Below, in pieces: positions 1 to 37,582 of a stretch of 64,000 bases of DNA. Each line of letters opens with the position of its first letter. Within the stretch, counting starts at the first letter, position 1. Both the position numbers and the translations under genes were made by a program. The notes under the pieces were generated by a model. It made no database searches, was not told the DNA's origin, and was given only the letters and a program-made list of their open reading frames with translations. Where the stretch lies: contig JBMRGM010000039.1 in the NCBI GenBank assembly GCA_052327205.1, forward strand, positions 7,874,001-7,938,000. The letters run 5' to 3'. Source of the DNA: Somniosus microcephalus (Eukaryota).

Positions 1-3000
1 GCACATATATTACATTGCAAAGTGATATTTCATTGCAATGTTCCATTGAATTGCAATGAATTTTCTATTGCAAAGTGATACTCCATTGCAAAGTGCTATT
101 GCATTGCAAAGGAATTATATAGCAAAGTGATATTCCATTGCAACGAGCAATTGCTTTGCAAATTACTATTAGAGTGCATAGTGATATTCCATGCAATGTT
201 CTATTGCTTTGCAAACGACTACTCTATTGCAAAGTGCTGTTCCACTGCAAAGTCATATTCCATTCCAAATAACGGTCATATTGCAAAGTGATCTTCCATT
301 GCAATGCTCTACTGCATTGCAAATGACTATTATATTCCAAACTGTTATTCGATTGCAATGTTCCATTGCATTGCAATGACTAATAAATTGCCAATTCATA
401 TTCCTTGCAATGTTCTATTGCATTGCAAATGATGATAGTATTGCAGTGATATTCCTTTGCGATGTTCTTTTGCATTGCAAACTATGATTATGTTGCAAAG
501 TGATATTCCACTGCAATAATCTATTTCATTGCAAATGACTAGTATATTGCAAAGTGATATTTCATTGCAATGTTATATTGCATTGCAAATGCCGAACATA
601 TTGCAAAGCTATATTCCATTGCAATTTTCTATTGCATTGCAGATGGCTATTATATTGCAAGCTCAATTTCCATTGTAATATTGCATTGCATTGCAATGTC
701 TATTATATTGCAAAGAAACATTCTATTGCAATGTTCTATTGCATTGCAATGACTATTATAATGCAAAGTGATATTTGATTGCAATGTTTTATTGCATTGC
801 AAATGATGATCATATTACAAAGCGATATTCCATTGCAATGTGTAATTGCTTTGCAAATGACTATTATATTGCAATCTGCTATTCCATTGCAATGTTCAAT
901 TGCATTGCAAATTAATTTATTTTGAAAAGTGATATTCCATTGCAATATCGTATTGCATTGCAAATGTTGTTCATATTGCAAAGCATTATTCCATTGCAAT
1001 GTGCTATTGCATTGAAAATGAATATAATATTGCAAGTTAATATTCCATTGCAATGTTCTATTGCATTGCTAATGACTATTATATTGCAAAGTGATATTCC
1101 ATTGAAATGTTCCATTGCATGGCAAATGACATTCATATTGCAAACTGATATCCCATTGCAATGTTGCATTGCGTAGCAATGACTATGCTGTTGCAAAGAA
1201 TTATTCTATCATAATATGCTATTGCATGGCAAATTGCAATTGTTTTGCAGTGATATTCCATTGCAATGTTCTGTAGCATTGCAAATGACTTTCATATTGC
1301 AAAGCGATATTCCATTGCAATATTGTATTATATTGCAAGCTTAATTTCCATTGTAATGTTCCATTGCATTGCATTGACTATTATATTGCAAATAAATATT
1401 CCATTGCAATGTGCAATTACATTACAAATGACTACTGTATTGCTAAGCGATGTTCCATTGCAATGTTCTGTTGCATTGCAAATTATTATTATATCGTAAT
1501 ATGATATTCCATTGCAATGTTCAATTGCATTGCAAATTAATTTCTATTGCAAAGTGATACTTCATTGCACTCTCCTATTGCATTGCAAATGGTGATCATA
1601 TTGCAAAGCGATAGTCCATTGTAATATGTTATTGCATTGAAAATGAATAAAATATTGCAAGTTAATATTGCAAAGTGATATTTCATTGCAATGTTGTATA
1701 TATTGCAAAGTGATGTTCCCTTCCAATGTGCTATTGCATTGCAACTGCCAATAATATTGCAAGTTTATATTCCATTGCAATGCTCTATTGCATTGAAAAT
1801 GATGTCTATATTGCAGTGATATTCTATTGCAATGTGCCAATGTATTGCAAATGAAAATAATATCACCGGTTGACATTCCATTGTAATGTTGTATTGCATT
1901 GCAAACGACTATTATATTGCAATTTAATATTTCATTAAAATTTGCTATTGCATTGCAATTGAATATTAAATAGCAAAGCAGTATTCCATTGCAATCTACT
2001 ATTGCATTGCAAATGACGATTATATGGCAAACTGATATTTTTTTGCAAGATTTCTTTGCATTGCAATGTTGTACGGCATTGCACATTAGTATTATATTGC
2101 AAACTGATATTCCATTGCAATGTTCCATTGGATTGCAATGAATATTATATTGGGAAGTGATATTCCACTGCAATGTTCTATTGCATTGCAAATGATGATT
2201 ATATTGCAGTGACATTCCATTGCAATGTGCAATTGCATTTCAAATGGCTATTATATTGCAAAATGATGTTGCATTGCAATGTTCTATTGCATTGCAAATG
2301 ACGTTTCTATTGCAGCGATCTTCTATCGCAATGTACCATTGCACTGCAAATGAAAATATTATTGCCAGTTGATATTCCATTGCAATATTCTATTGCATTG
2401 CAAACGACTATTATATTGCAATGTCATATTTCATTGCAATGTGCTATTGCCTTGCAAATGACTATTATAATGCAAAGCGGCATACCATTGCAATGTTCTA
2501 TTGAATTGCAAATGACGATTATATTGCAAACTTATGTTCCATTGCAAGGTTGATTTGCATTGCAATGACGATCATATTGCAATGCGATATTCGATTGCAA
2601 TGTTCTGTTGCAGTGCAAATGTTTTTCATATTGCAAAGTAATATTACATTGCAATGTCATTTTCCATTGCAAATGAAAATTATACTGCAAGTTAAAATTC
2701 CATTCCAGTATTCTATTGCATTGCAAATGAATATTATATTGCATGGTGATATTCCATTGCAAAGTTCTATTGCATTGTCAAATAAAATTATATTGCAAAG
2801 TGATATTCCACTGCAATGTGCTATTGCATTGCGAATGACTTTAATATTGCAAATTGATATGCCATTGCAATGTTCTATTGCACTGCAACTGACGACAATG
2901 GTGCAGTATTATTCCCTTGCAATGTGCAATTGCATTGCAAATGACTATTATATTGCAAAGTGATATTTCATTGCAATGTCCTGTGGCATTGTAAATGTAT

Positions 3001-3970
3001 ATATTATTTCAAGTCAAAATTCCATTGCAACATTCTATTGCATTGCAAATCAATGTTGCAATGCAAAGTGATACCCCATTGCAATATTCTATTGCATTGG
3101 TTAATAATATTATATTGCAAAGTGATATTCCATTGCAATGTGGTATTGGATTGCAAGAAAATATTATATTGCAAAGTGATATACCATTGTAATATCCTAT
3201 TGCATTGCAAATTGCGATGGTACTGCAAAGTGAAAATCCACTGCAATGTGCTATTGCATTGCAAATGAATATAATATTGCAAGTTAATATTCCATTGCAA
3301 TGTCCTATTGCATTGCAAATAAATATTGTATTGCAAATTGATACTCCATTGCAATATTCTATTGCATTGCAAAATAATATTATAGTGCAAAGTGATATTC
3401 CATTGCACTGTGGTATTGGATTGCAAAATAATATTATATTGCAAAGTGATATACCATTGGAATATCCTATTGCATTGCAAATGGTGATGGTACTGCAAAG
3501 CGATATTCCTTTGCAATGTGCTATTGCATTACAAATGAATATAATATTGCAAGTTAATATTCCATTGCAACGTTCTATTGCATTGCAAATGAATATTATA
3601 TTGCAAAGTGATATTCCATTGCAATGTTCTATTGCAGTGCAAATTACTTATATATTGCAAAGTGTTACTCCATTACAATGTTCTATTGCAGTACAAATGA
3701 TGATCACGTTACAAGGCCATATTCCATTGCAATGTGCTATTGCATTGAAAATGACTATGATATTACCAAGATATATTACATTGCAATCTTCTATTGCATT
3801 GCAAATAACTTTCATATTGCAAAGCGATATTCCACTACAATGTCATGTTGCATTGCAAATGACTATTATATTGCAAACTAATATTCCATTGAACTGTTCC
3901 ATTGCATTGCAATGACTATTATATTGCAAAGGGATATTCCACTGCCATGTTCTATTGCATTGCAAATGAC
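1..3970 (+). repeat. 54-bp AT-rich satellite (3 x 18-bp subunits, each starting TTGCAA), block 1
   Basis: Consensus TTGCAAAGTGATATTCCA-TTGCAATGTTCTATTGCA-TTGCAAATGACTATTATA. The recurring ORF-track peptide LQSDIP-LQCSIA-LQMTII reflects this period. Confidence 0.95.
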
Positions 3971-6470: not shown

Positions 6471-7644
6471 TAGCAATGGAATATCACTTTGCAATATAAT
6501 AGTCATTTGCAATGCAGCAGCATATTGCAATGGAATATCGATTTGCAATGGAATATCACTTGGCAATATACTAGTCACTTGCAATGCAATAGAACATTGC
6601 AATGAAATATTACTGCAATATATTCGTCATTTGCAATGCAATAGAACATTGCAATGGAATATCGCTTTGCAATATAATAGTCATTTGCAAGGCAATAGGA
6701 TATTGCAATGGAATATCACTTTTCAAAATAATAGCCATTTGCAATACAATGGAATATTGCAATGGAATATCAACTGACAATATTATTTTCATTTGCAATG
6801 CAATGGCACATTGCAATTGTATATCGCTACAATATCAACGTCATTTGCAATGCAATAGAACATTGCAATGGAATATCACCTTGCAATACAATAGTCAGTT
6901 GCAATGCAATAGCACATTGCATTATCGAACATCACTGCAACATAATCGTCATTTGCAATACAGTAGAACAACACAAAGGAATTTTAACCTTGCAGTATAA
7001 TAGTCAGTTGCAATGCAATAGCATATTGCAAGGGAATATTGCCTTGCAATATGATGGCCATATGCAATGCGGTAGAAAATTGCAATGGAATAGAGCTTTG
7101 CAATAAAATAGTCATTTGGAATGCAATAGCACGTAGCAATGGCATATTGCCTTGCTATGTGTTTGTCATTTGCAATGCAATAGAACATTGCAATTGAATA
7201 TCATTTTGAGGTATAATAGTCATTTGCAATACAATAGCATATTGCAATGGAATATATCTTTCCAATGAGATCGTCATTTACATTGCAGTAGAGCATTGCA
7301 ATGGAATATCAATTGGCAATATAATAGTCATTTGCAATGCAATAGAACATTGCAATGGAGTACTAACTTGCAATATTATATTCATTTGCAATGCAATAGC
7401 ACATGGTAATGGAATATCACTTTGCAATATAATAGTCATTTGCAATGCAATTGCACATTTTAATGGAATATCACTGCAGTTTAATCGTCATTTGCAATGC
7501 AATACAATATTGCAATAGAATGTCACTGCAGTTTATTCGTCATTTGCAATGCAATAGAATATCGCGATGAGATATCAGTTCGCAATATAATAGTCATTTG
7601 CAATGCTATACAACACTGCAATGGAATATCACTGCAATAAAATT
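6471..7644 (-). repeat. 54-bp TTGCAA satellite in inverted orientation
   Basis: Reverse complement of the block 1 consensus (GCAATGGAATATCACTTTGCAATATAATAGTCATTTGCAA). Short inverted pieces also lie at about 5650-5696 and 8500-8556. Confidence 0.9.
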
Positions 7645-8495
7645 GTGATTGGGCAGATATATGGCAGATGCAGTATAATGTGGATCAATGCGAGGTTATC
7701 CACTTTGGTGGCAAAAACAGGAAGGCAGGTTAGTATCTGAACAACAATAGATTGGGAGAAGGGGAAGTACAATGAGACATGGGTGACCTTGAGCCCCAGT
7801 CGCTGAAGGTAAGCATGCAGGTGCAGCAGCTGGTTATGAAGGCAAATGGTAGGTTGGCTTTCTTAGCGAGAGGATTTCAGTACAGGAACAAAGATTTCTT
7901 GCTGCAGTTGTACAGGGCCTTGGTGAGACCACACCTTATGTATTGTGTGCAGTTTTGTTTGCCTTATCTGAGGAAGGATGTTCTTGCCATGGAGGGATTG
8001 CAGCAAAGATTAACCAGCATGAGACCTGTGATGGAAGGAATGATGTATGAGGAGAGATTGGGTAGATTGGGCTTATACTAGCTGGAGTTCAGAAAATGAG
8101 AATGGATCTCATTGAAACATATAACATGTTAACAGGACTAGACAAACTAGATGCAGGAAGGATGTTATTGATATCGGGGGAGTCCATAACCAGGGTTCAC
8201 AGTCTAAAGATAAGTGGTATGCCATTTAGGACAGAGGCGAAGAGGAATTTCTTCACCCAGATGGTGGTGAACTTGTGGAATTCTCTACATGAGAAGGCAG
8301 TTGAGGCCAATGCATTATATGTATTCAAGAAGGAGTTAGATATATTTCTTAAGGCTAAAGGGCTCATGGATATGGGGAGAAGGCAGAGACAGGGTACTGA
8401 GTTTGAATAATTAGCCATGATCTCATTGAATGGCGGAGCGGGCTCAAGGGGCCGAATGGCCTACTCCTGTTCCCATCTTCTATGTTTCTACAATT
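7645..8495 (+). mobile_element. CR1 LINE 3' fragment
   Basis: LYRALVRPHL.YCVQF and RNFFTQ.VVNLWNSL motifs; 3' UTR hairpin GGGCCGAATGGCC and CTATGTTT tail. Confidence 0.9.
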
Positions 8496-8565
8496 CTGTG
8501 TCATTTGCAATGCAATAGAACATGGCAGTGGAATAACCCTTTGCAATAAAGTAGTCATTGCAATG

Positions 8566-10424
8566 CATTGCAATGGGATATTGTATTGCCAATGAACATA
8601 CTATTGCCAGTTGATATTCCATTGCACTGTGCTATTGAATTGCAAGTGTCGATTATATTACTGAGTGATATACCACTTCATTGCTCTATTGCATTGCAAA
8701 TGATGATCATATTGCAAAGTGATATTACATTGCAATGTTCTATGGCATTGCAAATGATTATTTTATTGCAAACTGATATTCCATTGCAATGTTCCATTGC
8801 ATTGGAATAACTATTATATTGCAAAGTTATATTCCATTGCAATATTATATTGCATTGCAAGGTTGATTATATTGCAAACTCCAAAGCACTATTCATTTGC
8901 AAAGGGATATTCAATTGCAATGTTCTATTGCACTGCAAATTATTTTATACTGTAAAGAGATATTCCATTGGAATGTTCTATTAAATATGACTATTATATT
9001 GCAAAATGATATTCTATTGCAATGTTGCATTTCATTGCAAACGACTAGTATATTGCAATGTGATATTAGATTGCAATGTGCTATTGATTTGCAATTGACT
9101 TATATTAAAAATGACATTCTATTGCAATGTGCAATTGCCTTGCAAATTACTATTATAATGCAAAATCTGATTCCATTACAAAGACAGATTCCAATCCAAA
9201 GCATTATTATATTCAAAATGATATTCCATTGCAATGTGCAATTGCATTGCAAATGAATATTATATTGCAAATTCTGATTCCATTGTGAAGGCAGATTCCA
9301 ATCCAATGCACTGTTATATTGCAAAGTGATATTCCATTGCAATGTGCTATTGCATTGCAAATATCTATTATATTGAAAAGTAATATTCCATTGCAATGTT
9401 CTATTGCATTGCACATGACTATTACATTACAAAGTCATATTCTATTGCAATGTTACAATGCATTGCAAATGACTACTATATTGTTAAGTGATATTCCAGT
9501 GCAATGATCTATTTCAATGCAAGTGACTACGATATTGTTAAGCGATATCACATTGCAATGTTCTATTAGATTGCAATTGAGTATGATATTGTTAAATGAT
9601 ATTCCATTGTAATGTCCTAATGCATTGTGAATGCCTATTATATTGCAAAATGATATTCCATTGCAATGTTATATTGCACTGCAAATGACTATTATATTGC
9701 AAATTAATTTAAATTTCAACGTGCTATTGCATTTGAAATGGCTATTATATAGCAGAGATACTCCATTGCAATACTCTACTGCATTGTAAATCACGATTAT
9801 ATTGCAAAGTTAAATTCCATTCCAATGTGCTATTGCATTGCAAATGACGATTATATTGCAAAGCGATATTCCATTACAATGTGCTATTGCATTGCAAAAG
9901 ACTAGTTTATTGCAAATTGATATTCCATTGCAATGGTTTGTTGCATTACAAATGACTATTATAATGGGAATTCATATTTCATTGCATTGTACAATTGCAA
10001 TGCAAATGACTATTATATTGCAAATGCAGATTCCACTCCAAAGCAAAATTATATTGCAAAGTGATATTCCATCGCAATGTGCTATTGCATTGCAAATGAC
10101 TATTATATTGTGAACTGATATTCCATTGCAATGCCCTATTGCATTGCAAATGACGTTTACATTCCAAAGTGACGTTTCATTGAAATGTGCAAATGCAAAT
10201 GACGATTATATTGCAAAGTGATTTTCCATTGCTTTCTTCTATTGCATTGAATATTGACTATTATATTGCAATGTGATATTAGATTGCAAGGTGCTATTGC
10301 ATAGAAAATGACTATTATATTCCGTTTTAATGTTCTATTGCATTGCAAATGACTATTATATTCCAAACAGATATTCCATTGCAATATTCTATTGCATTGG
10401 AAATGACGATTATATTGTAATGTC
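8566..10424 (+). repeat. 54-bp TTGCAA satellite, forward block
   Basis: Same consensus as block 1. Confidence 0.93.
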
Positions 10425-13283
10425 ATAGAGTCATAGTCATAGAGTTATAAAGCACAGAAAGAGACCCTTCGACCCATCGCATCTGCGCCATCAAGCCCTG
10501 TCTAACCTAATCACATTTTCCAGCATTTGGTCCATAGCCTTGTATGCTATGGCATTTCAAGTGCTCATCCCAATGCTTCTTGTATGTTGTGAGGGTTCCT
10601 GCCTCTACCACACTTTCAGGCAGTGAGATCCATATTCCAAGCTCCCTCTGGGTGAAAAAATTCTTCCTCAAATTCCATCTAAACCTCCTGCCCTTACATT
10701 GAATCTATGCCCCCTCGTTATTGAACCCTCTACTATGGTAAAAAGTTCCTTTCTATCTACCCTATCTATGCCCCTCATAATTTTGTACACCTCAATCAGG
10801 TCCCCCCTCAGCCTTCTCTGCTCCAAGGAAAACAATCCCAGCCTGTCCAGTCTTTCTTCATAGCTGAAGCGCTCCAGCCCAGGTAACATCCTGGTGAATC
10901 TCCACTGCACCCTCTCCAAAGCAATCACATCCTTCCTATAGCGTGATGATCAGAACTGCACACAGCATTCCAGCTGTGGCCTAACTAGCATATTGTACAG
11001 CTCCATCATAACCTCCCTGCTCTTATATTCTATGCCTCGGCTAATGAAGGCAAGTATCCCATATGCCTTTTTAACCATCTTATCCACCTGTTCTGCTGCC
11101 TTCAAGGATCTATGTACATGCACACCAAGTTCCCTCTGATCCTCTGTCTTTCCTAGGGTCTTACCATTCATTGTGTATTCCATTGCCTTGTTACTCCCTC
11201 CAAAATGCATCACCTCACACTTTTCAGGTTTACATTCCATTAGCCACTGTTCCGCCCATCTGACAAACACATCTATATCATCCAGCAGACTGAGGCTCCC
11301 CTCCTTGCTATTTACCACCCCACCAATTTTCGTGTCATCTGCGAACTTACTGATCATAACTTTTACATTCACATCCAAATCATTAATGTAGACCACAAAC
11401 AGCAAGGGACCCAGCACTGATCCCTGCGGTACCCCACTGGACACAGGCTTCCAGTCACAAAAACAAACTTCGACCATCACCCTCTGCCTTCTGCCACCAA
11501 GCCAGTTTTGGATCCAATGTGCCAAGGCGCCCTGGATCCCATGGGCCCTTACCTTCCTGACCAGTCTACTGTGCGGGACTTTATTGAAAGCCTTACCAAA
11601 ATCCATGTATAACACATCCACTGCGCTACACTCATCCACACACCGAGTCACCCCCTCGAAAAATTCAATCAAATTGGTCAGACATGATCTTCCCTTGACA
11701 AAGCCATGCTGACTATCCCTGATTAATCCTTGCCTCTCCAAGTGGAGACTAATTCTGTCCCTCAGAATGTTTTCCAATAATTTCCCTACCACTGATGTTA
11801 GGCTCACTGGCCTGTAATTCCCTGGTTTATCCCTACTACCCTTCTTGAATAATGGTACTACGTTAGCTGTTCTCCAGTCCTCTGGCATATCCCCTATGGC
11901 CAGATAGGTTTTGAAAATTTGTGTCAGAGCCCCTGCAATCTCCTCCTTTGCCTCACAAAGCAGCCTGGGATACATTTCGTCCGGGCCTTTGGATATATCC
12001 ACTTTTAAGCCAGCTAAAACCGCTAGTACCTCCTCCCTCTCGATGCTAATATGTTCAAGTATATCACAGTCCCCCTGCCTGATTTCTATATCTACATCGT
12101 CCTTCTCCATAGTGAACACAGATGCAAAAAATTCATTTATAACCCCACCTACATCTTCTGGCTCCACACACATATTGCCACTTTGGTCCCTAATGGGCCC
12201 TACTCTTTCCCTAGTTATCCTCTTGCCCTTAATATACTATTAAAACACCTTAGGATTTTCCATTATTTTGCTCGGCGGCGTTATTCCATGGCACCTCCTC
12301 GCTCTCGTAATTTCTTTTTTAATTATCCCCCTGCACTTTTTATACTCCTCTAGGGCTTGCTCTGTCTTTAGTCCTTTGTATCTGCCAAAAGCCCTCCTTT
12401 TTTTCCTAATCCATTCTCGTTCATCCCTTGACATCCAAGGTTCCCTGGGCTTGCTTGACCCACCCTTGACCTTTACGGGAACATGTTGCCATTGTACTCT
12501 CTCAATTTCCTTTCTGAAAGACTCCCATTGCTCCGATGTGGATTTTCCTACAAGTAGCTGATCCCAGTCCACTTTGGCCAGATCCTGCCTTATATATTAA
12601 AATCGGCCTTCCCCCAATTTAGAACCTTTATTTCTGGTCCATCTCTGTTCTTTTCCATGACTGCCTTAAATCTCACCAAATTATGGTCACTGTCACCAAA
12701 GTCCTCACCTACTAACACTTCTACCACTTGCCCGGCCACATACCCTAGAATTAGGTCCAGTACCGTCAGCTCTCTTGTTGAAATTTCTACATTCTGGCTC
12801 AAAAAGCTCTCCTGGATGCACTTTAAAAATTCTGCACGCTCTAAGCCTTTCACACTCTGACTATCCCAGTTAATATTGGGGAAGTTGAAATCCCCCACTA
12901 CTATTACCCTATTATTTGCAAATTTGTCTGAGATTTACCTACATATCTGTTCCTCTATCTCCCCCTGACTGTTTGGGGGCCTATAGTACACTCCCAGCAA
13001 AGTGCTTCCCCCCTTTTTGTTTTTAATTTCTACCCATGAGGCCTCATTAGATGAACCTGTTAATATATCATCCCTCCTTACAGCAGTAATTGACTCCTTA
13101 ATTAATATTGCGACACCCCCTCCTCTTTTACCCCACCCCCCTCTGTCTCGCCTGAAGATTCTATACCCCGGAATATTGAGCTGCCAGTCTTGCCCCTCTC
13201 TCAACCATGTCTCCGTAATAGCAACAATATCATACTCCCATGTGTTCATCAACAGCTTCAGTTCATCCACCTTATTCGCAATG
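10425..13283 (-). mobile_element. CR1 LINE, near-complete degraded ORF2 (endonuclease plus RT)
   Basis: AITETWL, GVYYRPP, MGDFNFP, NYRPVSLTS, GVPQGSVLGP and SKFADDTK motifs are split over several ORFs. The tail is at 10425. Confidence 0.95.
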
Positions 13284-16200
13284 TGATTTTCCATTGGAAT
13301 GTGCTATTGCATTGCAAATGATGATTATATTGCAAAGTGATATTGCATTAAAATGTACCATTGCATTGCAAATGACTTTTATATTGCAAACAGATATTCC
13401 ATTTCCATATTTCATTGCATTGCAAATGGCGATTATGTTGCAGAGTGATATTCCATTACAATGTGCTATTGCATTGGAAATGACTATTTTATAGCAATGT
13501 GATATTTCATTGCAATTTGCTAATGCATTGCAAATGACAATTATATTGCAAAGTGATGTTCCACTGCAACCTTCTATTGAATTGCATGTTGACTATTATA
13601 TTGCTGCGTGATATTAGATTGCATTGTTCTTTTGCATGGCAAATGATGATTATATTTCAAAGCAATAGTCCATTGCTATTTGCTATTGTATTGCAAATGA
13701 CTATTATATTGCAAAGTGATATCCCATTGCAAGGTGCTGTTGCATTTCAAATGACGCTTATATTGCAAAGCGATATTCCATTGCAATGTGCTATTTCATT
13801 GCAAATGATGATTGTATTGCAAAGTGATATTCCATTGCAATGTGCTATTGCATTGCTAATGATGATAATATTGCAAAGCAATATTCCATTGCCATGTGTG
13901 ATTGAATTGTAAATTAATATTGTATTGCCAATTGATATTCCGTTACAATATTCTATTGCATTGCAAATGACGGTTATAGTGCAAAGCGATATTCAAGTGC
14001 AATGTGCTATTGCATTGCAAATAGCGGTTATATTGCCAAGTGATTTTCCATTGCAAAGTTCCATTGCATTGCAAATGACGTTGATATTGCTAAGTAATAT
14101 TCCATTGCAATGTTCTATTGCATTACAAATGACTACGATATTGTTAAGTGATATTCCATTGCAATGTTCTGTCATATTGCAAATGGCGATTAAATTGCAA
14201 AGCAAAATTCCATTGCTTTGTGCTATTGCATAGCAAATGACTATTATATTGCAGTGATATTCCGTTACAATGTTATATTTTATTAGAAATGGCTACGATA
14301 TTGTTTAGTGAGATTCCATTGCAATGGCTATTGTATTGCACATGACTATTATATTGCAGTCAGATTCCATTGCAAGTGCAGAATCCACTCCAACGCACAA
14401 TTATATTGCAAATGTATATTCAATTGAAATGTTCTATGCAATTGCAAATGACTATTATATTGCAAAGAGATATTCCATTGCAATTTCCTATTGCATGGCA
14501 TGACTATTATCTTGCAAAGTGATGTTACATTGCAATTTTCTATCACATTGAAAATCACTGTTATATGACAAAGTGATGTTCCATTGTAATGTCCAGTTGT
14601 TATGTTGCATTACAAATGACGATTATATATCAAAGCAAAATTCCAGTGCAATGTTCTATTGCATTGCAAATGACTATGATATTGCTAAGTGATATTGCAT
14701 TGAATCGTTCTATTGCATTTCCAATGACAGTTATATTACAAACTGATATTCCATTGCAGTGTTCTATTGCACTTCAAATGACTATTGTATTGCAAAGTGA
14801 TATTCCATTGCAATGTGCTATTGCATTGCATATTAATATTTTATTTTAAAGTGAGATTCCATTGCAATGTTCTATTGCATTGGAAATGACGATTACATTG
14901 TAAAGTGATATTACATTGCAATGTGCTATTGCTTGCAAATGACGATTATATTGCAAAACGATATTCCATTGCAATGTGCTATTGAATAGTGAATTAATAT
15001 TGTATTGCAAAGTGATATTCCATTGCAATGTTCTATTGCATTGCAAATGACGATTATATTTCAAAGTAATATTCAATTGCAACGTGCAATTGATTTGCAA
15101 ATGAAGATTATATTGCAAAGTGATATTCCATTGTAATATTCCATTGCATTGCAAATGAGGGTTATATTTCTAAGTGATACTCCATTGCAATGTTCTATTT
15201 CATTACAAATGACAACGATATTGTTAAGTGATGTTCCATTGCAATATTCTATTATATTGCAAATGACGATTAAATTGCAAAGTGATATTCCATTGCTAAG
15301 TGCAATTGCATTGCAAATGACTATTATATTGCAAAGTAATTTTCCATTGCAAAGTTCCATTGCATTGCAAATGACGTTTATATTGCTGAGTGATATTCCA
15401 CTGCAATGTTCTATTGCATTACAAATGACTACGCTATTGTTTAGTGAGATTCCATTGCAATGGCTATTGCAGTCAGAGTCCTTTGCAAGTGCAGAATCCA
15501 CTGCAAAGTACAATTATATTGCAAATGGATATTCAATTGAAATGTTCTATTCAATTGCAAATGACTATTATATTGCAAAGAGATTTTCCATTTCAATTTC
15601 CTATTGCATGGCATGACTATTATCTTGCAAAGTTATTTGACATTGCAATTTTCTATTACATTGAAAACCACTGTTATATTAAAAAGTGAAGTTTCCTTGT
15701 AATGTCCAATTGTTCTTTGGCATTGCTAATGACGATTATATTTCAAAGCAAAATTCCAGTGCAATGTTCTATTGCATTGCCAATGACTATGCTATTGCTA
15801 AGCGATATTCCATTGAATTGTTCTATTGCATTTCTAATGACAGTTATATTACAAAATTATATTCCATTGCAGTGTTCTATTGCACTGCAAATGATTATTG
15901 TATTGCAAAGTGATATTCCATTGCAATCTGCTATTGCATTGCAAATTAATATTATATTTTAAAGTGAGATTCCATTGCAATGTTTTATTGCATTGCAAAT
16001 GACGATTACATTGCAAAGTGATATTACATTGCAATGTGCTATTGCATTGCAAATGACGATTATATTTCAAATTAATATTCAATTGCAATGTGCTATTGCA
16101 TTGCAAATGACGATAACATTGCAAATTGATATTCCATTGCAATGTTCCATTGCATTGCAAATGAGGTTTATATTGTTAAGTGATACTCCATTGCAATATT

Positions 16201-17090
16201 CTATTTCATTAGAAATGACGATTAAATTGCAAAGCGGTATGCCATTGCTATGTGCTATTAATTTGCAAATGACTATTGTATTGCGAAGTCAGATTCGATT
16301 GCAAGTGCAGATTCCACTCCAAAACACCATTACATTGCAAATGAATATTCAATTGCAATGTTCTATTGAATTGCAAATGACTATTATATTGCAAAGAGAT
16401 ATTCCATTGCAATGTCGTATTGCATTGCATGACTATTATCTTGCAAAGTGATATTGCATTGCAATTTTCTAGTACATTGAAAATGACTGTTATATTAAGA
16501 AGTGAGATTACATTGCAATGTTCTATTGCATTGCAAATGATGATTATATTCCAAAATGATATTCCATTGCAATGTGCTATTGAATTTCAAATGATTATTC
16601 TATTGCCAAGAGATATTCCATTGCAATATTCTATTGCATTGCAACTGACTATTATATTGCAAAGTGATATTCCATTGCAATGTGGTATTGCATTGCAAAT
16701 GACTATTATATTGCAAAGTGATATTCCATTGCAATATTCTATTGCATTGCAAATGACTGCGATATTGTTAATTGATATTTCATTGCAACATTCTATTGCA
16801 TTGCAAATGTTGATTATATTTCAAAGTGATATTCAATTGCAATGTTCCATTGCATTGCAAATAACTATTATATTGCAAAGTGATATTCCATTGCAATGAG
16901 CAATTGAATTGGAGATGACTATTACATTGCAAAGTCTGATTCCATTGCAAAGGAAGTTTCTGCAACAAAGCACTTTTATATTGCAATGTGATATTCCATT
17001 GCAATGTGCTATTGTATTGCAAATGACGATTAAATTGCAAAGTTATATTCCATTTCAATGTGCTATTGCATTGCAAATCACTTTTATTTG
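13284..17090 (+). repeat. 54-bp TTGCAA satellite, last block
   Basis: Same consensus; contains higher-order duplications. Confidence 0.93.
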
Positions 17091-17232: not shown

Positions 17233-19400
17233 ATTGCAGGATGGTATCAGGTAGCAAATAAATTTGAACTATGTCTGTCTTTCTCTGTCTTTACCTCTCT
17301 TTGTCTGTTTCTGTCGCTATCGGTGTCTCTCTCCATATAGAACAATGTCTCTGTCTGTCTGTATCTGTCTACCTGTCTCGTTCTCTGTCTCTCTGTCTCT
17401 GTCTGTCTGTGTTTCGCTATCTGCATCTGTCTGTCAGACTGAGGCTTGTCTGTCTGACTCTGTCTATCTCCCTGTCTGTATGCCTCTTTGTCTACATCTG
17501 TCACTTTGACTGTCTCTTTCTCTGTGTATGTCGATCAATCTCTCTCTGATTGCCTGGGTCTCTGGCTCTCTGTTTCTATGGATATCTCTCTCACTGGTTT
17601 ATCTATCTTCCTGTCTCTCTATCTCTGGTTCTCACGCTCTGTTGTCCCTCTCAGTCCGTGTCTGGCACTGCCTGTCAGATTGTCTCTGCATATCTGTCCC
17701 TGTCTGTATGTCCATGTCTGTGTGTCTGTTTCTGTTGGACTGTCGATGTCCATCTGTGTCTCTGTCACTGTCTGTCTATGTTCTTGTCTGAATGTGTATC
17801 TGTCTGCCTGTGTGTGTCTTTGTGTTTGATTCTCTGTCTGTGTCTGTCTGTCTCTGTCCCTCTCTCTGGCTGTGTCTGTCTTTGCCATTCACTATGTCAG
17901 TTTCAGCTGCTGTCTTTGTCTGCTGTCTGCCTGTCTCAGTCTGTTTGCTTGTCTCTCTGTCTCTCTGTCTGGCCCTGTCATTCTTTGTCTCACTTCTATT
18001 TCTGTCAGTTGATGTTGCTGTCTGTGTTTCAGTACGTCTGCATCCATTTCTTTTTCTGCCTGTCTTTCTCCATCTATTTCATTCTCTGTGTCTACCCCTG
18101 TCTGGCTCTGTCAACCTGAGCCTATTCCTCTGTCTGTCCGTCTGTGCTCTGCCTGTCTGTTTCTGTCTGTCTCTGTCTATTGGTCTGTCTTGGCATGTCA
18201 ATTTACATACCTCTGCCTATGTCTCTCTCTCTGTCTGGCTCTGCCTGTCTTTCTGTCTCTCTCTGTCTCTCCTTGTTGTTGTCTCTCTGTCTCAGTCTGT
18301 CTATATCCCTGTCTGACTCTTTCTCTGTCTTCCTGTTTCTCTGTCCACATACTTCTCTCTGACTATCGTTCTCTCTCTGTCCATCTGTGTCTCTTTTTCT
18401 GTCTGTCTGTCACATTCTGGCTGTGTTTCTCTGTCTCTGTCTGTTCTCTCTCTCTCTCTCTCTGTCAGTTTCTGTCGCAGTCTCTGTCTCTGCCCGTCTG
18501 TGTCCCTCGCTCTGTCATTCTGTCTCTACCTGCCTGTTTCTTTCCCCTGCCTACCTCTGTCTGTTTCTTTGTCTCGTTCTGTCTCTTTCTCTGTCTCTGT
18601 CTGTCCCTCTGTTTCTCTCTGTCTGTCTGTATCTTTTCGCCCATCTCTCTCTCTCTTAATCTCTCTCTCTCTCTCTCTCTCTGGTGTTTCTCCCTCTGTT
18701 GTGTCTGTTAGTCTGAGTCTGTCCCTGCTTCTCCTTCTATCTCTGCATATCTGTCCCTGGTCTGTCACTGTACATCGTTGTCTCTGTTTGTCTATCTCCC
18801 TCTGTCTGTTTCTTGCTGTTGCTGTCTTTCTGGCTCTTTCTGCCTTTGTCTTTCACGCTGGCAGTTTATGTCAGTGGGTTTGTCTGCAGCCTGCCTGTCA
18901 CATTATGTCTGTCTCTGACTGTCTCTATTTCTGTTTGTATCTGTCTTCCTCTCTCCCGTTTTCTCTGTCTTTCTCTCTCTCTCTCTCTTTCTGACATTTG
19001 GGGTTACTGTCTGTTTTCTGTCCATCTGTGCCCCTCTCTCTGTCTGTGTCTCTTTCTCTGTGTTTAACTCTGTCTGGCTCTGTCAGTCTGAGTATATTCC
19101 TCTTTCTGCCTCTCTAACTCTGTCTGTCTCTGTCTTTCTGTGTCTCTGTGTTCCTGTCTCTCTCTATGTATCTGTCTCTCTGCCTATGTCCATCTGACTA
19201 TCTCAGTCTGTCTGTCACTGTCTGTCTGTATCTCTCACTTTGTTTGTCTCTGTCTGTCTCTATCTCTCTACCAGTCTCTGTCTGTTACTTTTTAACTCTC
19301 TCTTTATGTCTGTCCGGGTCTCTGTTTGTGTCTCTCCCTCTGTCTCTGCATATCTCTCTCTGTCGCTGTTTCTGTATGTCTATCTTTCTCCCTTTCTGTC

Positions 19401-22400
19401 TGTGGTAAACCACTGTTATACCTGTCTGCATGTGTATGTGTATTCCACTAGGTACAGGCTGACTCCTCCCACTATTCCCGGTATATAAGTGACTACCTCC
19501 CAGTCCCTAAGTATTCTGGATGGGTCGACCACTCGAGACAAGACCTTCATTCTTTAGTTAATAAAAGCTTGGTTGTTACTCGCTTAACCTCAGTCTTTTA
19601 AGTAATTGATGGCGCAACAATTTTATAAACTAAATTTTTTATAATGGAGAAGATCCTCACACCAGCATGCCTGGACCCGGACAGTCGGGAAGCGGACGCT
19701 TCCACTAAGTTTGCTCACTGGCTCACGTGCTTCGAGACATTCCTGACTGCCTCCACTGCGGTTGTAACGGATGCGGACGAACTGTCTGTCCTGATCTCCA
19801 AGGTGAACCACCGAGTGTACTCAGTCATCCGGGACGCAACCTCGTACACAGCCACCCTCCAGCTCCTCAAGACCCAGTACACGCGCCCTGTGAACGAAGT
19901 ATACGCCAGGCACCTTCTGGGGAGTCGCAAGCAACAACCTGGGGAATCGACTGAGGAATACCTCCAAGCACTGTCCGTGCTTGGCCGGGCCTGTGGGTGT
20001 AAGGCGGTAATGCCCGCTAAGTACACGGAGGAACTGATCCGGGATGCCTTCGTAGCGGGCCACAGGTCCAACTACACCCGACAGCGACTGCTGGAGCAGA
20101 GTGACCTCACCCTCGACAAAGCCTCCGAAATCGCACTAACGCTGCATGCAGCCTACCGGGGCATGGAAGCCTACTCCTCTGCACCGTAGATGCCGCGGGG
20201 AACGACAACCTGGGACACGGTAGGACAGCCCCATAGCACCGTGCCACCCCAGCCACAGCCCAACAACGGCCCAACTACCACAGCAGTGTCCCAAAGCCAG
20301 ACAGCAGTATCCCAAGGCCAGAAATGCTACTTCTGTGGCCAGGCCAAACACCCCAGAGCGCGCTGCCCGGCGAAGAAAGCGACCTGCTCGGGCTGCGGGA
20401 GAAAGGGACACTACGCCAGCGTCTGCAAGGCCAAAGCCACCCCGAATGCCAGCAGCGCCACGTGTGGGCCGTGTGAGCCGCCATCTTGGGCCCCCAACAG
20501 CGCCACTTGTGGGCCGTGCGGGCCGCCATCTTGGGCCTCCCCAGCCATGTGCGAACCACCGCAGCAGCAGCCATCTTGGACGACTCCAGCCACATGGGAA
20601 TCATGGACGCCGCCATCTTGGACACCAGCCAGGACGCAGCAGACCGCCAACCCCCCGCCATCTGATACCCGCAGCGACACACCGACCCCTACGCTGGCCT
20701 CTGTTACGCTGGACCAAACGAGACCGCACCAACTAGCTCGGTCCAATATGGACGTTAAGATAAACGGCCATGCAATAAACTGCCTTTTTGACTCTGGGAG
20801 CACTGAGAGCTTCATCCACCCCGACACGGTGCGGCGTTGCTCTCTCCCAGTCCTGCCTGCGCACCAGCGGAATTCTATGGCCTCCGCGTCCCAGTCAGCG
20901 GACATTCGCGGCTACTGCGTGGTGACACTAGTAGTAGACGGGACTGTGTTCAATAATTTTAAACTCCTGGTCCTGCCCGACCTCTGCGCTGCCGTCCTAC
21001 TGGTGTTGGATTTCGAGTGCCACCTCAAAAGCGTTACGCTGGCGTACGGTGGCCCCCTCCCCCCACTCATAGTCCGCAGCCAGCAGCCTCCAAATTGCCC
21101 CCCGCGCACCAGATGCAACCTCTCCACACTCAGAGTCCCAGCCCCCCCACTGTTTGCTAACCTCACCCCCGACTGTAAGCCTATCGCCACAAAGAGCAGG
21201 CGATACGGTGCCGAGGACAGGGTTTTCATCAAAACCGAAGTGGAGTGGCTCCTGAAGGAGGGGATCATTGAGGGCAGCTCCAGCCCCTGGCGAGCCCAGG
21301 TTGTGGTCGTTAAGACCGGCGAGAAACAATGCCTGGTCATCGACTACAGCCAAACAATAAACCGCTGGACGCCTACCCACTCCCCCGCATAGCTGACATG
21401 GTCAACCAGATCGCGCAGTACCGCGTCTTTTCGACCATTGACCTGAAATCAGCGTACCACCAGCTCCCCATCCGCCCTGAAGACCGCCAATACACTGCTT
21501 TTCAGGCAAACGGCCGCCTCTATCACTTCCTTAGGGTTCCCTTCGTCGTTACCAATGGGGTCTCCGTCTTCCAAAGGGAGATGGACCGGATGGTCGATCA
21601 AAATGCGCTGCAGGCCACTTTCCCTTACCTAGACAATGTGGCCATCTGTGGCCATGACTTGCAGGACCATGACGCAAACCTCGAGAAATTCCTCCGCACC
21701 GCCCAACTCCTGAACCTGACATATAACAAGGAGAAGTGCATATTCCGCACAGACCGCCTCGCCATTCTTGGCTGTGTTGAGGAACACGGGGTCATCGGTC
21801 CCGACCCGGAGCGGATGCATCCCCTTATGGAACTCCCACTGCCCCACTGCCTAAAAGCTCTGAAGAGGTGCCAAGGGTTTTTTTCCTACTACGCTCAGTG
21901 GGTCCCCTACTATGCAGACAAAGCCCGTCCGCTGATCAAAACCACCTCTTTTCCCCTGATGGCAGAGGCCCGCTTGGCCTTCCACTGTATCAAGGAGGAC
22001 ATTGCCAAAGCCACCATGCATGCAGTGGACGAATCCATCCCCTTCCAGGTGGAAAGCGATGCGTCCGACTTCGCTCTGGCCGCCACCCTTAATCAGGCGG
22101 GGAGACCTGTGGCATTCTTCTCATGAACCCTCCAGGGCCCAGAGACCAGACACTCTGCGGTCGAGAAGGAGGCCCAGGCTATTGTGGAGGCTGTGCGTCA
22201 TTGGAGGCACTACCTGGCCGGAAAACGATTTACCCTGCTCACTGACCAGCGTTCAGTTGCTTTTATGTTCAATAACAAGCAGAGGGGCAAAATCAAAAAT
22301 GACAAGATCTTGAGGTGGAGAATCGAACTTTCCACCTACAATTACGAGATCTTGTACCGGCCCGGGAAGCTCAATGAACCCCCGGATGCTCTATCTCGTG

Positions 22401-23835
22401 GCACCTGCGCCAGCGCACAGATCGATAGGCTGAGGGCCCTCCACAATGACCTCTGCCACCCGGGGGTCACCAGGTTCTTCCACTTCATCAAGGCCCGCAA
22501 CCTGCCTTTCTCCATCGAGGAGGTCAGGACCATGACCAAGAACTGCCAAGTCTGTGCTGAGTGCAAACTGCACTTTTATAGACCAGACAGAGCCCTCCTG
22601 ATAAAAGCCACTCGCCCTTTCGAACGCCTGAGCATCGATTTTAAAGGGCCTCTCCCTTCCTCCGACCGCAATGTGCACTTCCTCAACATCATTGACGAGT
22701 ACTCCCGCTTCCCGTTCGCTATCCCCTGACCGGACATGACCAGTGCCACGGTCATTAAATCTCTGAACAGCCTCTTCACCCTGTTCGGTTTCCCCAGCTA
22801 TATCCATAGCGACCGGGGCTCATCGTTTATGAGCAACGAACTCCGCCAGTACCTGCTCGCTAGGGGTATAGCCACAAGCAGGACCACCAGTTACAACCCC
22901 CGGGGGAACGAACAGGTGGAAAGAGAGAATGCAACAGTTTGTAAGGCCACCCTACTAGCCTTAAAGTCTAGGGGCCTTCCGACCTCCCGCTGGCAGGAGG
23001 TGCTCCCCGATGCGCTCCACTCGATTCGGTCACTGCTCTGCACTGCCACCAATGCTACCCCTCACGAGAAAATGTTTGTCTTCCCAAGGAAGTCCACATC
23101 GGGGACATCGTTACCGCCATGGCTGACGTCCCCAGGGCCGGTACTACTGAGAAGACACGTGAGGGCCAATAAAACGGACCCCCTGGTCGAGAGGGTCGAC
23201 CTCCTCCACGCCAACCCCCAGTACGCTTACATTGCGTACCCGGACGGGCGGGAGGACACAGTCTCCATACGAGACTTCGCACCCTCGGGGACCACTGTAA
23301 CCCACTACGACACAGTCTCCATATGAGACCTCGCACTCTCGGGGACCGCTGTAACCCACTACCCATTACCACCCCCCCCCCACGACCCGATATCCAACCC
23401 CAGCAGCCGGCTCACCTTGGACCATCACCCACGAGGATTACACTCCAGGGCCCCAGCCTACACGGGACACGACACGGGACGCGACGCCGGAAGCTCCACC
23501 ACCCCTGCCGTCGCCACGTCGATCACAGCAGCAGACAAGACCTCCGGAGAGACTCCAATACACGAACATTTAAATACACTTCTCCCCACCGGACTCATTT
23601 TTAAACAAGGGGTGAATGTGGTAAACCACTGTTATACCTGTCTGTATGTGTATGTGTATTCCACTAGGTACAGGCTGACTCCTCCCACTATTCCAGGTAT
23701 ATAAGTGACTACCTCCCAGTCCCTTAGTATTCTGGACGGGTCGACCACACGAGACAAGACCTTCATTCTTTTGTTAATAAAAGCCTGGTTGTTACTCGCT
23801 TAACCTCAGTCTTTTGAGTAATTGATGGCGCATCA
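19401..23835 (+). mobile_element. Full-length Ty3/Gypsy LTR retrotransposon A (4435 bp), decayed
   Basis: LTRs of 219 bp at 19401-19619 and 23617-23835 (TG...CA, 9 mismatches). TSD CTGTC. PPT AAACAAGGGGTGAA before the 3' LTR. Domain order Gag-PR-RT-RH-IN. Confidence 0.97.
19644..23326 (+). pseudogene. Gag-Pol polyprotein of Gypsy A
   Basis: Two Zn knuckles (CYFCGQAKHPRARC, CSGCGRKGHYASVC), protease LFDSGS, RT YLDN, RNase H ESDAS...DALSR and integrase HHCC plus DDE. Interrupted by stops at 20187, 22124 and 22727 and a frameshifting deletion near 21365. Confidence 0.92.
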
Positions 23836-24549
23836 CTGTCTGTCTGATTTTGTTCGTCGGTCCCTACTGTCTATTATGTTCCATTTGTGTCTCTGTCTGT
23901 CTTTCTGCTTCTGTCTGTTTCTCTATCTCTGTCTGTCTGAGTCTCCAATTCTCTGTCTGTCTCCATCGCTGTCTGTCTGTGTCTGCCTGTCATTGTCTCT
24001 TAATCTGTCTATCTGTGTGCCTGTCTGTGTCCCTGTTGTGTCCTCTTTTTATCTTTCTATATATCTCTGTATGTCTCTGCCTCTGTCTCGCTGCCTGTGT
24101 CTCTGGCTTTTTCTGTCTCTCTGTCTCTCTCTGATTTTAAGTCTCTGTCTGATTGCCTTTCACAGTCTGCCAGTCTCATTCTGCCTCATTCTCTATCAGT
24201 TTCTGTCAGATTCAGTTTGCCACTGTCTCAGTCTTTCTTTGTCTGTCCTCTCTGTCTCTCAGTCTGTCTCTTTCTGTTTGGCTGTCTCTCTCTGTCTGTC
24301 TGTCACAACCTGTCTGCTTGTCTCTGTCTGTCTCTTGCTGCGTGTCTGTCTCTGTCTGACTGCCTGTCTCAGTGAGTCTGTCTCTGATTGTCTCTATTTC
24401 TGTCTGTCGCTTTCTCCGTCCCTCCGGCTCTATCTTTCTGTCTCTCTCGCTCTCTCTGTCGGTTTGTGTTGCTGTCTCTGTCTCTGTCCGTCTGCGTACC
24501 TCTGCCTGTCTGTTTGTCTGTCTGCCTGTCTCTTTCTATGTGTCTACCT

Positions 24550-27173
24550 ATGGCCTTGTCATAACCAACACTGTGTTCCATCAGAGGGACAAGTACAAGA
24601 CCTCATGGCTACATTCTCGCTCCAAACACTGGCATCTGCTGGACTATGCCATTGTCCGCAAGGATGTCCACATCACTCGTGCCATGACAGCAGCTGACGA
24701 CTGCTGAACGGACCACCACTTAATCCGCTCTGTCATCTCCATCAAGATAGACCCAAAAGATGGCGGCAGCAGAAAAAATTCCGCAGGAAAATCGAAGCTG
24801 GAGCACTCAAACACCCTGCTAAGAAAGCCCGAATCAGCCTCAGTCCCACATCCAACCGGGCGACTCCCAGTGATTCAGAGAAACAGAGTGTCCACAGCAC
24901 CTGGTCTGCACTCAAGGCCTCCATAATCAGCACCTGTGAAGAGACGCTCAGTCACTCTACTAGGAAACATCAAGACTGGTTCGACGAGAACACCCAGGAG
25001 ATCCAGGCACTAATAAGCGGAAAGTACAAATCATTCATGATCTGGAAACAGCAGCACAACTCGAGAGCAAGAAAGCAGCTCGACAGACGCCTGAACACAA
25101 CCTAAAGAACAGATGGCGCGTGGAGAAAGCGCAGGAGATCCAGCAGCTAGCCGACAACCATGACGTGAGTGGATGTTTTAGCTACCTACAGCCCAAGAAC
25201 GCAAGGTCCTACCCCACTGCGGGCCAAGAATGGAGAAGTACTCATCAAGGACAGAGAGGCAGTCAGTGCCCGCTGGAAGGAGCACTTTGAAGATCTCCTT
25301 AACCAAGACTCTGTCTTCGATGTGAGTGTCCTCAACACCATCTCAAAGCATGCTACCCGCCACCACCTCAGCACAACCCCAGCCCAGCAGGAGTTTGAAA
25401 AAGCCATCCGACAACTGAAGAACAACAAAGTCTCAGGAGCAAATGGAATCCCTGCCGAGGCACTAAAGCATGGTGGAGAAGCACTGCTGGCATGAATTCA
25501 TGAACTAATATCTCTTATCTGGAAGGAGGAAAGCATGCCAGTGGATCTCTAAGGTTCCATAATCGTGACCATCTTCAAGAAAGGTGACAAGTCCGATTGC
25601 GATAATTACAGAGGAGTCTCCCTGCTGTCTGCCACAGGGAAAGTAATTGCAAGAATCCTCCCCAATCGCCTTCTCCCAGTGGCTGAAGAGCTCCTCCTAG
25701 AGTCACAATGCGGATTCTGCCCACTGAGGGGCTCAATGGGCATGATCTTCACCACACATCAACTACAAGGGAAATGCAGGGAACAGCACCAACCACGGGA
25801 CATGGCCTTCTTTGATCTCACAAAGGCCTTCTACACTGTCAACTGTGAGGGCTTATTGAATGTCCTCCTCAAATTCTGCGGCTCTCAAAATTTTTTCACC
25901 ATCCTCTGCCTGCTTCAAGACGACATGCAAGCCGTGATCCTGAACAATGGTTCTACCACAGACCCAATTCAACTACGGACTCGGGTCAAAAAAGGTTGTG
26001 TCATCGCACCAACGCTCTTCTGGATCTTCCTCGCTGCAATACTCCATCTGACCCTCAGTAAGCTCCCCACTCGAGTGCAGCTAATTTACAGAACAAATGG
26101 TAATCACTTCAACCTCCGTTGCCTCCAGTCCAGATCCACAGTCGTTCCATCCACTGTCGTCAAATTACAGTATGCAGACGACGCTTGTGCCTGTACACAC
26201 TCTGAGGTCGATCTCCAATCCACCGTCAACTCCTTCACCGGAAAGGACAAGAGACTGGGCCTTACACTAAACATCCGTAAGACATAGGCCCTCTACCAAA
26301 CTGCCCCTGCCACACAGTACTGCCCCCCAGTTATCAAAATCCACGACGAGGCCTTGGACAACGTGGACCACTTTCCATTTCTCGGGAGCCTACTCTCAAC
26401 AAGGGCAGCCGTCGATGACGAAGTCCAACGCTGCCTTCAGTCTGCCAGTGCAGCCGTCGATGTCTTGAGGAAGATAGTGTTTGCAGACCAGGATCTCAAA
26501 CCTGGCAACAAGCTCATGGTCTACAGAGCAGCAGGGATACGCGCACTGCCGTATGCCTCAGAGACATGGACCATGTACAGCAGGCACCTCAAAGCACTGG
26601 AGACGTACCAGCAACACTGCTTCCGCAAGATCCTGCAAACCCATTGGCAGGATAGGCGCACCAACGTCAGTGTTATCACTGAGGCCAACATCTCCCGCAT
26701 CGAAGCTTTGACCACGCGCGATCAGCTCCGATGGACAGGCCATATCGTCCGCATGCCCGATACGAGGCTCCCTAAACAAGCGGTCTACTCGGAGCTCCTA
26801 CATGGCAAGTGAGCCCCATGTGGGCAGAGGATACCCATCAAGGACACACTCAAAGCCTCATTGAAAAAGTGCGGCATTACATTCAACACCTGGTAATCCC
26901 TGGCCCAAGACCGATCAAAGTGGAGGAGAAGCATCCCGGAAAGCACAAAATATCTCGAGTCTCTTCGCTGGGAGCATGCGGAAGCCAAGCACAAACATCG
27001 GAAGGAGTGCACATCAACCCAAGCACCCCACCCACCTGCCCCTACAACAACCGTCTGCCTCCCCTGTGACAGAGACTGTAGGTCCCGCATTGGACTTAGC
27101 GTTCACCTTAGAACTCATCTTTAGTGTGGAATCAAGTCATCCTCAGTCCGAGGGATTGCCTAAGAAGAGAAGA
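24550..27173 (+). mobile_element. RTE (BovB-like) LINE, 5'-truncated
   Basis: KHWHLLDY endonuclease end, KKGDKSDCDNYRGVSLLS, YADD, QLRWTGHIVRM and an AAG-type tail. TSD GTCTACCT at 24542-24549 and 27174-27181. Confidence 0.93.
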
Positions 27174-36118: not shown

Positions 36119-37582
36119 TGGCAGACTCTGGAACAGTACCCGTGGATTGGAGGGTAGCTAATGTTACCCCACTATTCAAAATAGGTGGTAGAGAAAAAGC
36201 GGGGAATTATAGACCGGTAAGCCTGACATTGGTAATGGGGAAAATGCTAGAGTCTATTATAAAAGATGTAATAGAAGAGCACTTGGAAAGCAGTGACAAA
36301 ATCGGACCAAGTCAACATGGATTTACAAAAGGTAAATCATGCTTGACTAATCTACTGGAATTTTTTGAGGATGTAACTGGTAAAATAGATAAGGGAGAAG
36401 CAGTGGATGTGGTGTATTTGGACTTTCAGAAGGCTTTCGATAAGGTCCCACATAAGAGATTAGTGTGCAAAATTAAGGCACATGGGATTGGGGGCAGGTA
36501 TTGACTTGGATAGAGAACTGGTTGGTGGACAGAAAGCAAAGAGTTGGAATAAACGGGTCGTTTTCGAAGTGGCAGGCAGTGACTAGTGGTGTACCGCAAG
36601 GATCGGTCCTAGGACCCCAGCTGTTCACAATATATATTATTGATCTGGACGAGGGAATTGGATGTAATATCTCCAAATTTGCAGACGACACAAAGCCGGG
36701 TGGGAGGGTAAGCTGTGAGGAGGATGTCGTGAAACTCCAGTACGAACTGGACAGGTTGGGTGATTGGGCAGAAGCATGGCAAATGCACTATAATGTGGAT
36801 AAATGTGAGGTTAACCACTTTGGTGGCAAAAACAGGAAGGCAGACTATTATTTGAACGGCAATAGATTGGGAGAAGGGGAAGTGCAAAGAGACCTGGGTG
36901 TTCTTGTGCACCAGTCGCTGAAGGTAAGCATGCAGGTGCAGCAGGCGGTTAAGAAGGCAAATGGTATGTTGGCCTTCGTAGCAAGAGGGTTCGAGTACAG
37001 GAACAAGGGTGTCTTGCTATAGTTGTACAGGGCCTTTGTGAGGCCGCACCTTGAGTATTGTGTGCAGTTTTGGTCGCCTTACCTGAGGAAGGATGTTCTT
37101 GCCATGGAAGGAGTGCAACGAAGATTCACCAGGCTGATACCTGGGATGGCAGGAATGACGTATGAGGAGAGATTGTGCCGATTGGGCTTATACTCACTGG
37201 AGTTTAGAAGATTGAGAGGGGATCTCATCGAAACCTATAAAAATCTGTCAGGCCTGGACAGACTAGATGCAGGAAGGATGTTTCTGATGGCCGGGGAGCC
37301 CAGAACCAGGGGTCATAGTCTAAGGATCAGGGGTCAGCCATTTAGGACTGAAATGAGGATTAATTTCTTCACCCAGAGAGTGGTGAACCTGTGGAATTCT
37401 CTGCCACAGATGGCAGTGGAGGCCAGTTCATTAAGGCTAAGGGGTTCAAGGGATATGGGGAGAAGGCAGGGACAGGGTACTGAATTTGGATGATCAGCCA
37501 TGATCTCATTGAATGGCGGAGCAGGCTCGAAGGGCCGAATGGCCTACTCCTGCTCGAATCTCCTATGTGTCTATGTTTCTAT
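36119..37582 (+). mobile_element. CR1 LINE RT/3' fragment
   Basis: NYRPVSLT, YLDFQKAFDKVPH, GVPQGSVLGP and FADD motifs, then a CR1 tail. Confidence 0.95.

Follow-up and report, generated by a model that had tools for sequence, protein, structure and literature searches.

Two Gypsy-type LTR retrotransposons, elements A and B, lie in a 64,000-nucleotide stretch of the Somniosus microcephalus genome (contig JBMRGM010000039.1, positions 7,874,001 to 7,938,000; hereafter the window). They raise the question of whether a reverse transcriptase (RT) can work in nature with asparagine in place of the second aspartate of YxDD. The initial annotation reported YLDN in both elements, and a six-frame scan bears this out. 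In element A, the RT motif C lies at 21626–21637 (+) in the context ATFPYLDNVAICGH, with AAT as the Asn codon; in element B, it lies at 47236–47225 (−) in the context ATFPYLDNVTICGH, with AAC as the Asn codon. The Asn of each element occupies the aligned position of the second Asp of YLDD in Ty3 RT (PDB 4ol8). The canonical three-aspartate active site is absent from both, as the third acid is Asn and the other two are conserved; the motif A catalytic Asp of element A (IDLKS; 21440–21442, +) is intact.

Element A spans 19401–23835 (+). Its 219-bp 5′ LTR (19401–19619) and its 3′ LTR (23617–23835) are 95.9% identical and are flanked by the target-site duplication (TSD) CTGTC, at 19396–19400 just upstream and at 23836–23840 just downstream. 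Its primer-binding site (PBS) lies at 19620–19634, the coding region for gag, protease, RT, RNase H, and integrase at 19644–23326, and the polypurine tract (PPT) at 23599–23616. Element B spans 49443–44941 (−) and has 259-bp LTRs (5′ LTR, 49185–49443; 3′ LTR, 44941–45199) that are 98.1% identical, with the TSD CTGCC outside; its PBS is at 49171–49184 and its PPT at 45200–45217. The paired LTRs and TSDs claimed for both elements are thus confirmed. Pfam matches run in the Gypsy order of protease, RT, RNase H, and integrase, and the paired LTRs (TG...CA), TSD, and PPT of Ty3/Gypsy elements are present in A, in B, and in sampled genome loci. Membership in BEL/Pao was considered and rejected, since the RT matches Ty3 and the Pfam matches are Gypsy-type. 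A chromodomain after integrase is typical of chromoviruses; no Pfam match to a chromodomain is found in the frames scanned, which exclude the C-terminal tail of element B, or among the listed domains of the homologs.

Both elements also contain short internal tandem duplications, in the Gag–protease gap and after integrase (20460–20620, 23206–23380, and 45413–45656), at which RNA reads vary in length. Elsewhere, the window holds a large 18/54-bp satellite in both orientations (7–3970, 6473–10423, and 13273–17078) and LINE RT fragments with canonical FADD/YADD motifs (11345–11334, 26171–26182, 33441–33430, 36678–36689, and 56776–56765), which we take to be CR1-like and RTE-like.

The coding region of element A is interrupted by one stop within gag, by a frameshift close to the start of RT, and by two TGA stops, one in RNase H and one in integrase; the pol region of element B carries several frameshifts and stops. 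Because both copies are broken, the window alone cannot decide whether Asn is fixed, and two dead copies could share one mutation by accident. We therefore turn to the 6.45-Gb genome. The codon pattern FPYLD-x-(V/I)-(T/A)-I-C, in which a Ser version serves as a control for neutral A-to-G change, gives 30,255 matches with YLDN, 48 with YLDD, and 52 with the YLDS control, and the reversed codon patterns give 0 matches. The equivalence of YLDD and YLDS counts indicates that the YLDD copies in this context are background point mutants within Asn subfamilies. A broader codon pattern gives 33,664 YxDN against 3,472 YxDD in the same genome. The more than 30,000 copies belong to several subfamilies and use both AAC and AAT, and YxDN is found in rays, sharks, cnidarians, and a nematode as well. 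A shared accident of decay is refuted by the pattern counts, and the probability left to it is practically nil. Asn is fixed in the lineage rather than a product of decay, as the initial annotation had proposed.

That annotation had also considered that the youngest intact copies might carry YLDD. They carry YLDN, as seen at young loci with long frames. At 5 of 20 sampled N loci, the LTRs are 98.3–100% identical and open frames of 1,247–1,350 amino acids contain YLDN. Clean boundaries with exact 5-bp TSDs are present at 9 of the 20; TSDs and PBSs were counted without the other 11, which had no usable LTR boundaries. Open frames of at least 1,200 amino acids hold about 22 of the best 150 genome matches, and the best 30 all read YLDN, a count that is biased by the query. 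The 20 N loci, of which 16 came from the Asn pattern and 4 were picked because of their long frames, and the nine-subfamily set described below were selected by Asn patterns, so that the unbiased evidence is the genome-wide pattern counts. At four loci (L124, L127, L134, and L136), an LTR start directly abuts an LTR end in long repeated blocks, which suggests tandem or nested copies.

Strong purifying selection acts on the RT of this lineage. A comparison of A with B gives an RT dN of 0.071 and a dS of 1.53 (ratio 0.05); among 10 copies, pairs with an RT dS above 0.8 have RT dN/dS ratios of 0.03–0.08, with similar values for RNase H and integrase. Asn is kept in 9 of 9 subfamilies, and neutral two-fold A/G third positions are invariant at only 5 of 50 sites. 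With Asn in every subfamily and no Asp subfamily in this context, Asn seems to be held against Asp in the shark lineage.

Conservation across 245 N-type homolog rows is 95–99% for the catalytic Asp of motif A, the first Asp of motif C, the Lys of motif D, and the four RNase H acids. In an AlphaFold prediction for P0280, a YLDN relative found in nature (mean pLDDT 86.2), the motif sits at the usual β-hairpin turn, and the predicted structure matches Ty3 RT with an E-value of 2.6e-19, as well as the RTs of CaMV and MMLV. Ty3 RT (4ol8) is the best sequence match among solved RTs; by fold it ranks third behind the MMLV and CaMV RTs, with similar E-values. The initial annotation had called for a search for compensating residues. 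When 245 N rows and 96 D rows are compared column by column, no residue tracks N versus D (the largest frequency shift is 0.63), and none is found to pair exclusively with Asn.

The family has transcripts in an organism in which about half of its indexed words also occur. In two RNA runs, chosen by species label (the indexed runs of the organism share up to 47% of the element's words), 16,201 and 18,809 reads map to element A, predominantly in the sense orientation; they do not place the transcription start. The depth at the motif is about 1,000 per run, and synonymous third positions vary. These reads bear on the possibility that Asp is restored after transcription, by A-to-I editing or by Asn deamidation, so that the working enzyme is YLDD. 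Under the genetic code, a single A-to-I change of the first Asn-codon base would yield an Asp codon. However, this base is not among the 40 best-supported RNA differences (63 further rows lie beyond these), making wholesale RNA editing to Asp unlikely, and edited genomic RNA would leave YLDD copies in the genome, where YLDD stands at background, 48 against 52. Deamidation, in turn, is slow for Asn before Val or Ile. Restoration of Asp thus has very little to recommend it, and we regard it as very improbable.

Most of the 3,472 YxDD matches (about 3,400 copies; 99 of the first 100 listed) are accounted for by a separate YLDD family of the same clade. Its RT is 58–59% identical to that of the YLDN elements and its Gag 32–40% identical, with little alignable DNA. 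The LTRs are 227–231 bp long and start with TGTGGT, and the PPT is similar to that of the YLDN families (loci L153–L172). Clean, young LTR pairs with 97.8–99.6% identity are present at 12 of 20 sampled loci; the other 8 lacked usable LTR boundaries and likewise do not enter the TSD and PBS tallies. This family is a natural control for the YLDN families.

It is also a conceivable source of enzyme. The YLDN elements could be non-autonomous for polymerization and borrow the RT of the YLDD family, which coexists with them in the genome as young copies and resembles them in PPT and LTR start. Such borrowing is possible in principle, but it fits poorly with the strong purifying selection on the YLDN polymerase domain, in which the other catalytic residues are kept, and with the abundance of the YLDN elements, which outnumber their supposed donor about tenfold. 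The donor is, moreover, as distant as the RT, Gag, and DNA comparisons above indicate, and Asn is present in 16 of 16 rows of the elasmobranch branch. We therefore consider borrowing highly unlikely and take the YLDN RT to act for its own elements.

The closest named homologs, at about 80% identity, are in rays and catsharks. Among the best 120 longer homologs, 104 have YxDN (89 L, 12 M, and 3 I) and 16 have YxDD. More broadly, 102 cluster representatives at no less than 36% identity comprise 43 N, 57 D, and 2 other, and all 47 of the more distant (outgroup) Gypsy RTs have D; this comparison used 149 of 150 rows. The clade is split from other Gypsy elements by a long branch (SH-aLRT 100), and D rows are nested inside N branches. 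The N/D label requires 14 changes in the cluster-representative tree, of which starred branches force 7; the near set requires 8 and the rooted set 9. As judged from these trees, which are quick IQ-TREE runs (LG+G4, with SH-aLRT only) that leave the direction of change unset and are built from homolog searches that lean towards the query, Asn and Asp have been swapped at least 7–8 times in the clade. Hosts of N members include rays, catsharks, Actinostola, and Paramuricea; the Trichinella member has YVDN, and the Trichonephila member has FIDD. Members P0013, P0055, and P0128 are deposited under bacterial metagenome-assembled genomes and are probably animal DNA there.

Many departures from other Gypsy RTs are common to the N and D members, among them TNGV in place of the NAP motif, SAYHQ, WRAQ, one additional residue in the fingers, and TDQ in RNase H. 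Since these departures are clade-wide and no residue tracks N versus D, they point to a permissive background rather than to a paired suppressor.

In size, the clade presumably resembles Cigr-1. The metazoan Gypsy clades named in the available text of PMC6238403 are Cigr-1, Tor2, MolGy, Mag, and CsRn1; YLDN, GVTNG, and SAYHQ are absent from its text-readable supplements. Term look-ups in the accessible parts of PMC2836005 and PMC2996953 return no name for the clade. The name "Selgy" was considered and rejected, as it denotes a Selaginella clade. A viral_contigs scan gives no relative, and an Atlas search gives generic RT clusters only. The literature searched, which lies outside Repbase, GyDB, and most subscription journals, contains no report of YLDN or YxDN in Gypsy elements and, within the same limits on subscription journals, none of self-priming in such a clade. 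The YLDN/YxDN families described here may already be catalogued in Repbase or GyDB.

These elements have a PBS that starts with ATTT, not TGG; its pairing partner is a segment of the element's own LTR that lies over an AATAAA-like signal. The paired LTR stretch is 11–18 nt long and co-varies with the PBS. An exact own-LTR complement of 12–17 nt is present in 15 of 19 elements, as compared with a cross-family median of 5–6 nt. In element B, the PBS is the exact complement of 13 nt over AATAAA (49241–49253, −), and the fold-back is significant (z = −4.05). The four elements that fail the exact-complement test include the decayed window copy A, in which the LTR stretch (19553–19566, +) pairs with the PBS with one mismatch and the fold-back is not significant. 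Of 55 metagenome loci with a readable motif, many of which are not long enough for a PBS, 12 N-type and 4 D-type loci have a complement of at least 11 nt (11–14 nt in the latter). The YLDD family of the shark has the same type of PBS, self-complementary over 11–13 nt in 9 of 12 clean copies. By likeness to Tf1 and Tj1, self-priming is likely to be clade-wide and independent of Asn.

The initial annotation had suggested that YLDN is coupled to the unusual priming and had called for a check of their co-segregation. The two do not co-segregate, as YxDD members, including the YLDD family of the same genome, share the self-complementary PBS while N and D switch repeatedly, which indicates that Asn is not tied to the priming. 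In another form of coupling, Asn would be a specific adaptation to self-priming: polymerization might, for instance, be slowed to suit the RNase H cut from which the primer arises. In the samples used, Asn is seen only inside the clade with the self-complementary PBS (0 of 47 outgroup rows), and it is apparently held against Asp in the shark lineage. In Ty1, RNase H suppressors give the corresponding D211N mutant back 5–10% of its transposition (available text of PMC2148107). However, the 4 metagenome loci and 9 YLDD-family copies with the same PBS speak against such an adaptation, and the nesting of D states within N branches leaves a link that is at most permissive. We consider such an adaptation unlikely.

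Elements A and B are therefore best explained as broken copies of a Gypsy lineage of more than 30,000 copies, whose fixed-Asn RT is probably self-sufficient with the two remaining catalytic aspartates, a reading that we hold with good confidence. That the YLDN RT still works as a polymerase is likely from the selection on it and from its copy number. The two aspartates would bind the metal, and the amide of Asn would take the third position; the clade-wide changes (TNGV in motif B, SAYHQ in motif A, the extra fingers residue, and the altered RNase H) may have made the site tolerant of N or D; and RNase H would cut the PBS–LTR fold-back to make the primer, by analogy with Tf1. Evidence from Ty1 falls on both sides. 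Ty1 D211N RT keeps polymerase activity in vitro and prefers Mn2+, but its kpol is 223-fold lower and its transposition is blocked (available text of PMC2148107), and this drop and block count against our explanation, as does the lack of a residue that tracks N versus D, whereas the activity retained in Ty1 and the partial rescue by RNase H suppressors count for it.

A broader reading, which we put forward tentatively and would rate somewhat below an even prospect, is that these elements represent an undescribed, widespread, self-priming Gypsy clade in which the third carboxylate is optional and Asn and Asp toggle across animal hosts. On this reading, the Asn form would be measurably distinct in its kinetics, use of metal, or template switching and would rank among the LTR families that have done best in a 6.4-Gb vertebrate genome, with ten times the copies of its Asp sister.

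Natural RT function without the second Asp of YxDD is left open for nematode YVDN in the available text of PMC554778; in Ty1, the mutant does not function in vivo. Strong arguments for such function here come from the copy number of more than 30,000, from purifying selection, and from young copies with long frames. Several independent N/D sister pairs, one of them within a single genome, make the role of the third carboxylate and its suppressors testable with natural proteins. Annotation rules that score YxDN elements as dead would misjudge this family, which could span an estimated 100 Mb or more at 4.4 kb per copy, if most copies are full length.

Among known systems, Ty3 is similar in the PR–RT–RH–IN order, the 5-bp TSD, and the PPT. 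It has YLDD and a NAP motif B, whereas the clade described here has TNGV, SAYHQ, one extra fingers residue, and a self-complementary PBS. Ty3 uses a tRNA primer. Tf1/Sushi and Tj1 have an upstream LTR stretch that complements the PBS and has been proposed as a self-primer (PMC4600332 and PMC6317226, in the portions available). The elements here resemble them in that the PBS complements the element's own LTR. Compared with Tf1/Sushi, no chromodomain is detected here in the frames scanned, and the complement overlaps an AATAAA-like signal about 20–65 nt before the LTR end.

Ty1 D211N has the same substitution at the same position; the available text of PMC2148107, which also cites active-site mutants of Ty3, reports that, in Ty1 RT, the second Asp of YxDD alone tolerates Asn. 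That mutation is engineered, crippling, and in a Copia-type RT, whereas the substitution here is natural and present in tens of thousands of copies.

The closest natural counterpart, which the initial annotation left out, is in nematode BEL/Pao RTs. YVDN is cited for Cer7–Cer12 of C. elegans, with the statement that retention of activity "remains to be determined" (PMC554778), and is described as a distinguishing feature of nematode belpaoviruses, in connection with the hookworm Atlas element (PMC9094657), both in the portions available. An Asn in place of the second Asp is therefore not without precedent. BEL/Pao integrases have the spacing D(45–53)E (available text of PMC554778). Both systems have LTR-element RTs in which Asn replaces the second Asp of YxDD naturally and throughout a lineage. 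Unlike BEL/Pao elements, some of which have env, the elements here are Gypsy-type, lack env, and have a PBS that pairs with their own LTR; and unlike in BEL/Pao YVDN, N and D alternate among sister families, even within one genome. The GDN and ADN motifs of some viral RNA polymerases are a parallel. With Asn at this position itself known from BEL/Pao, the interest of the present lineage lies in the scale of more than 30,000 copies, the repeated switching between N and D, and the presence of a D sister in the same genome.
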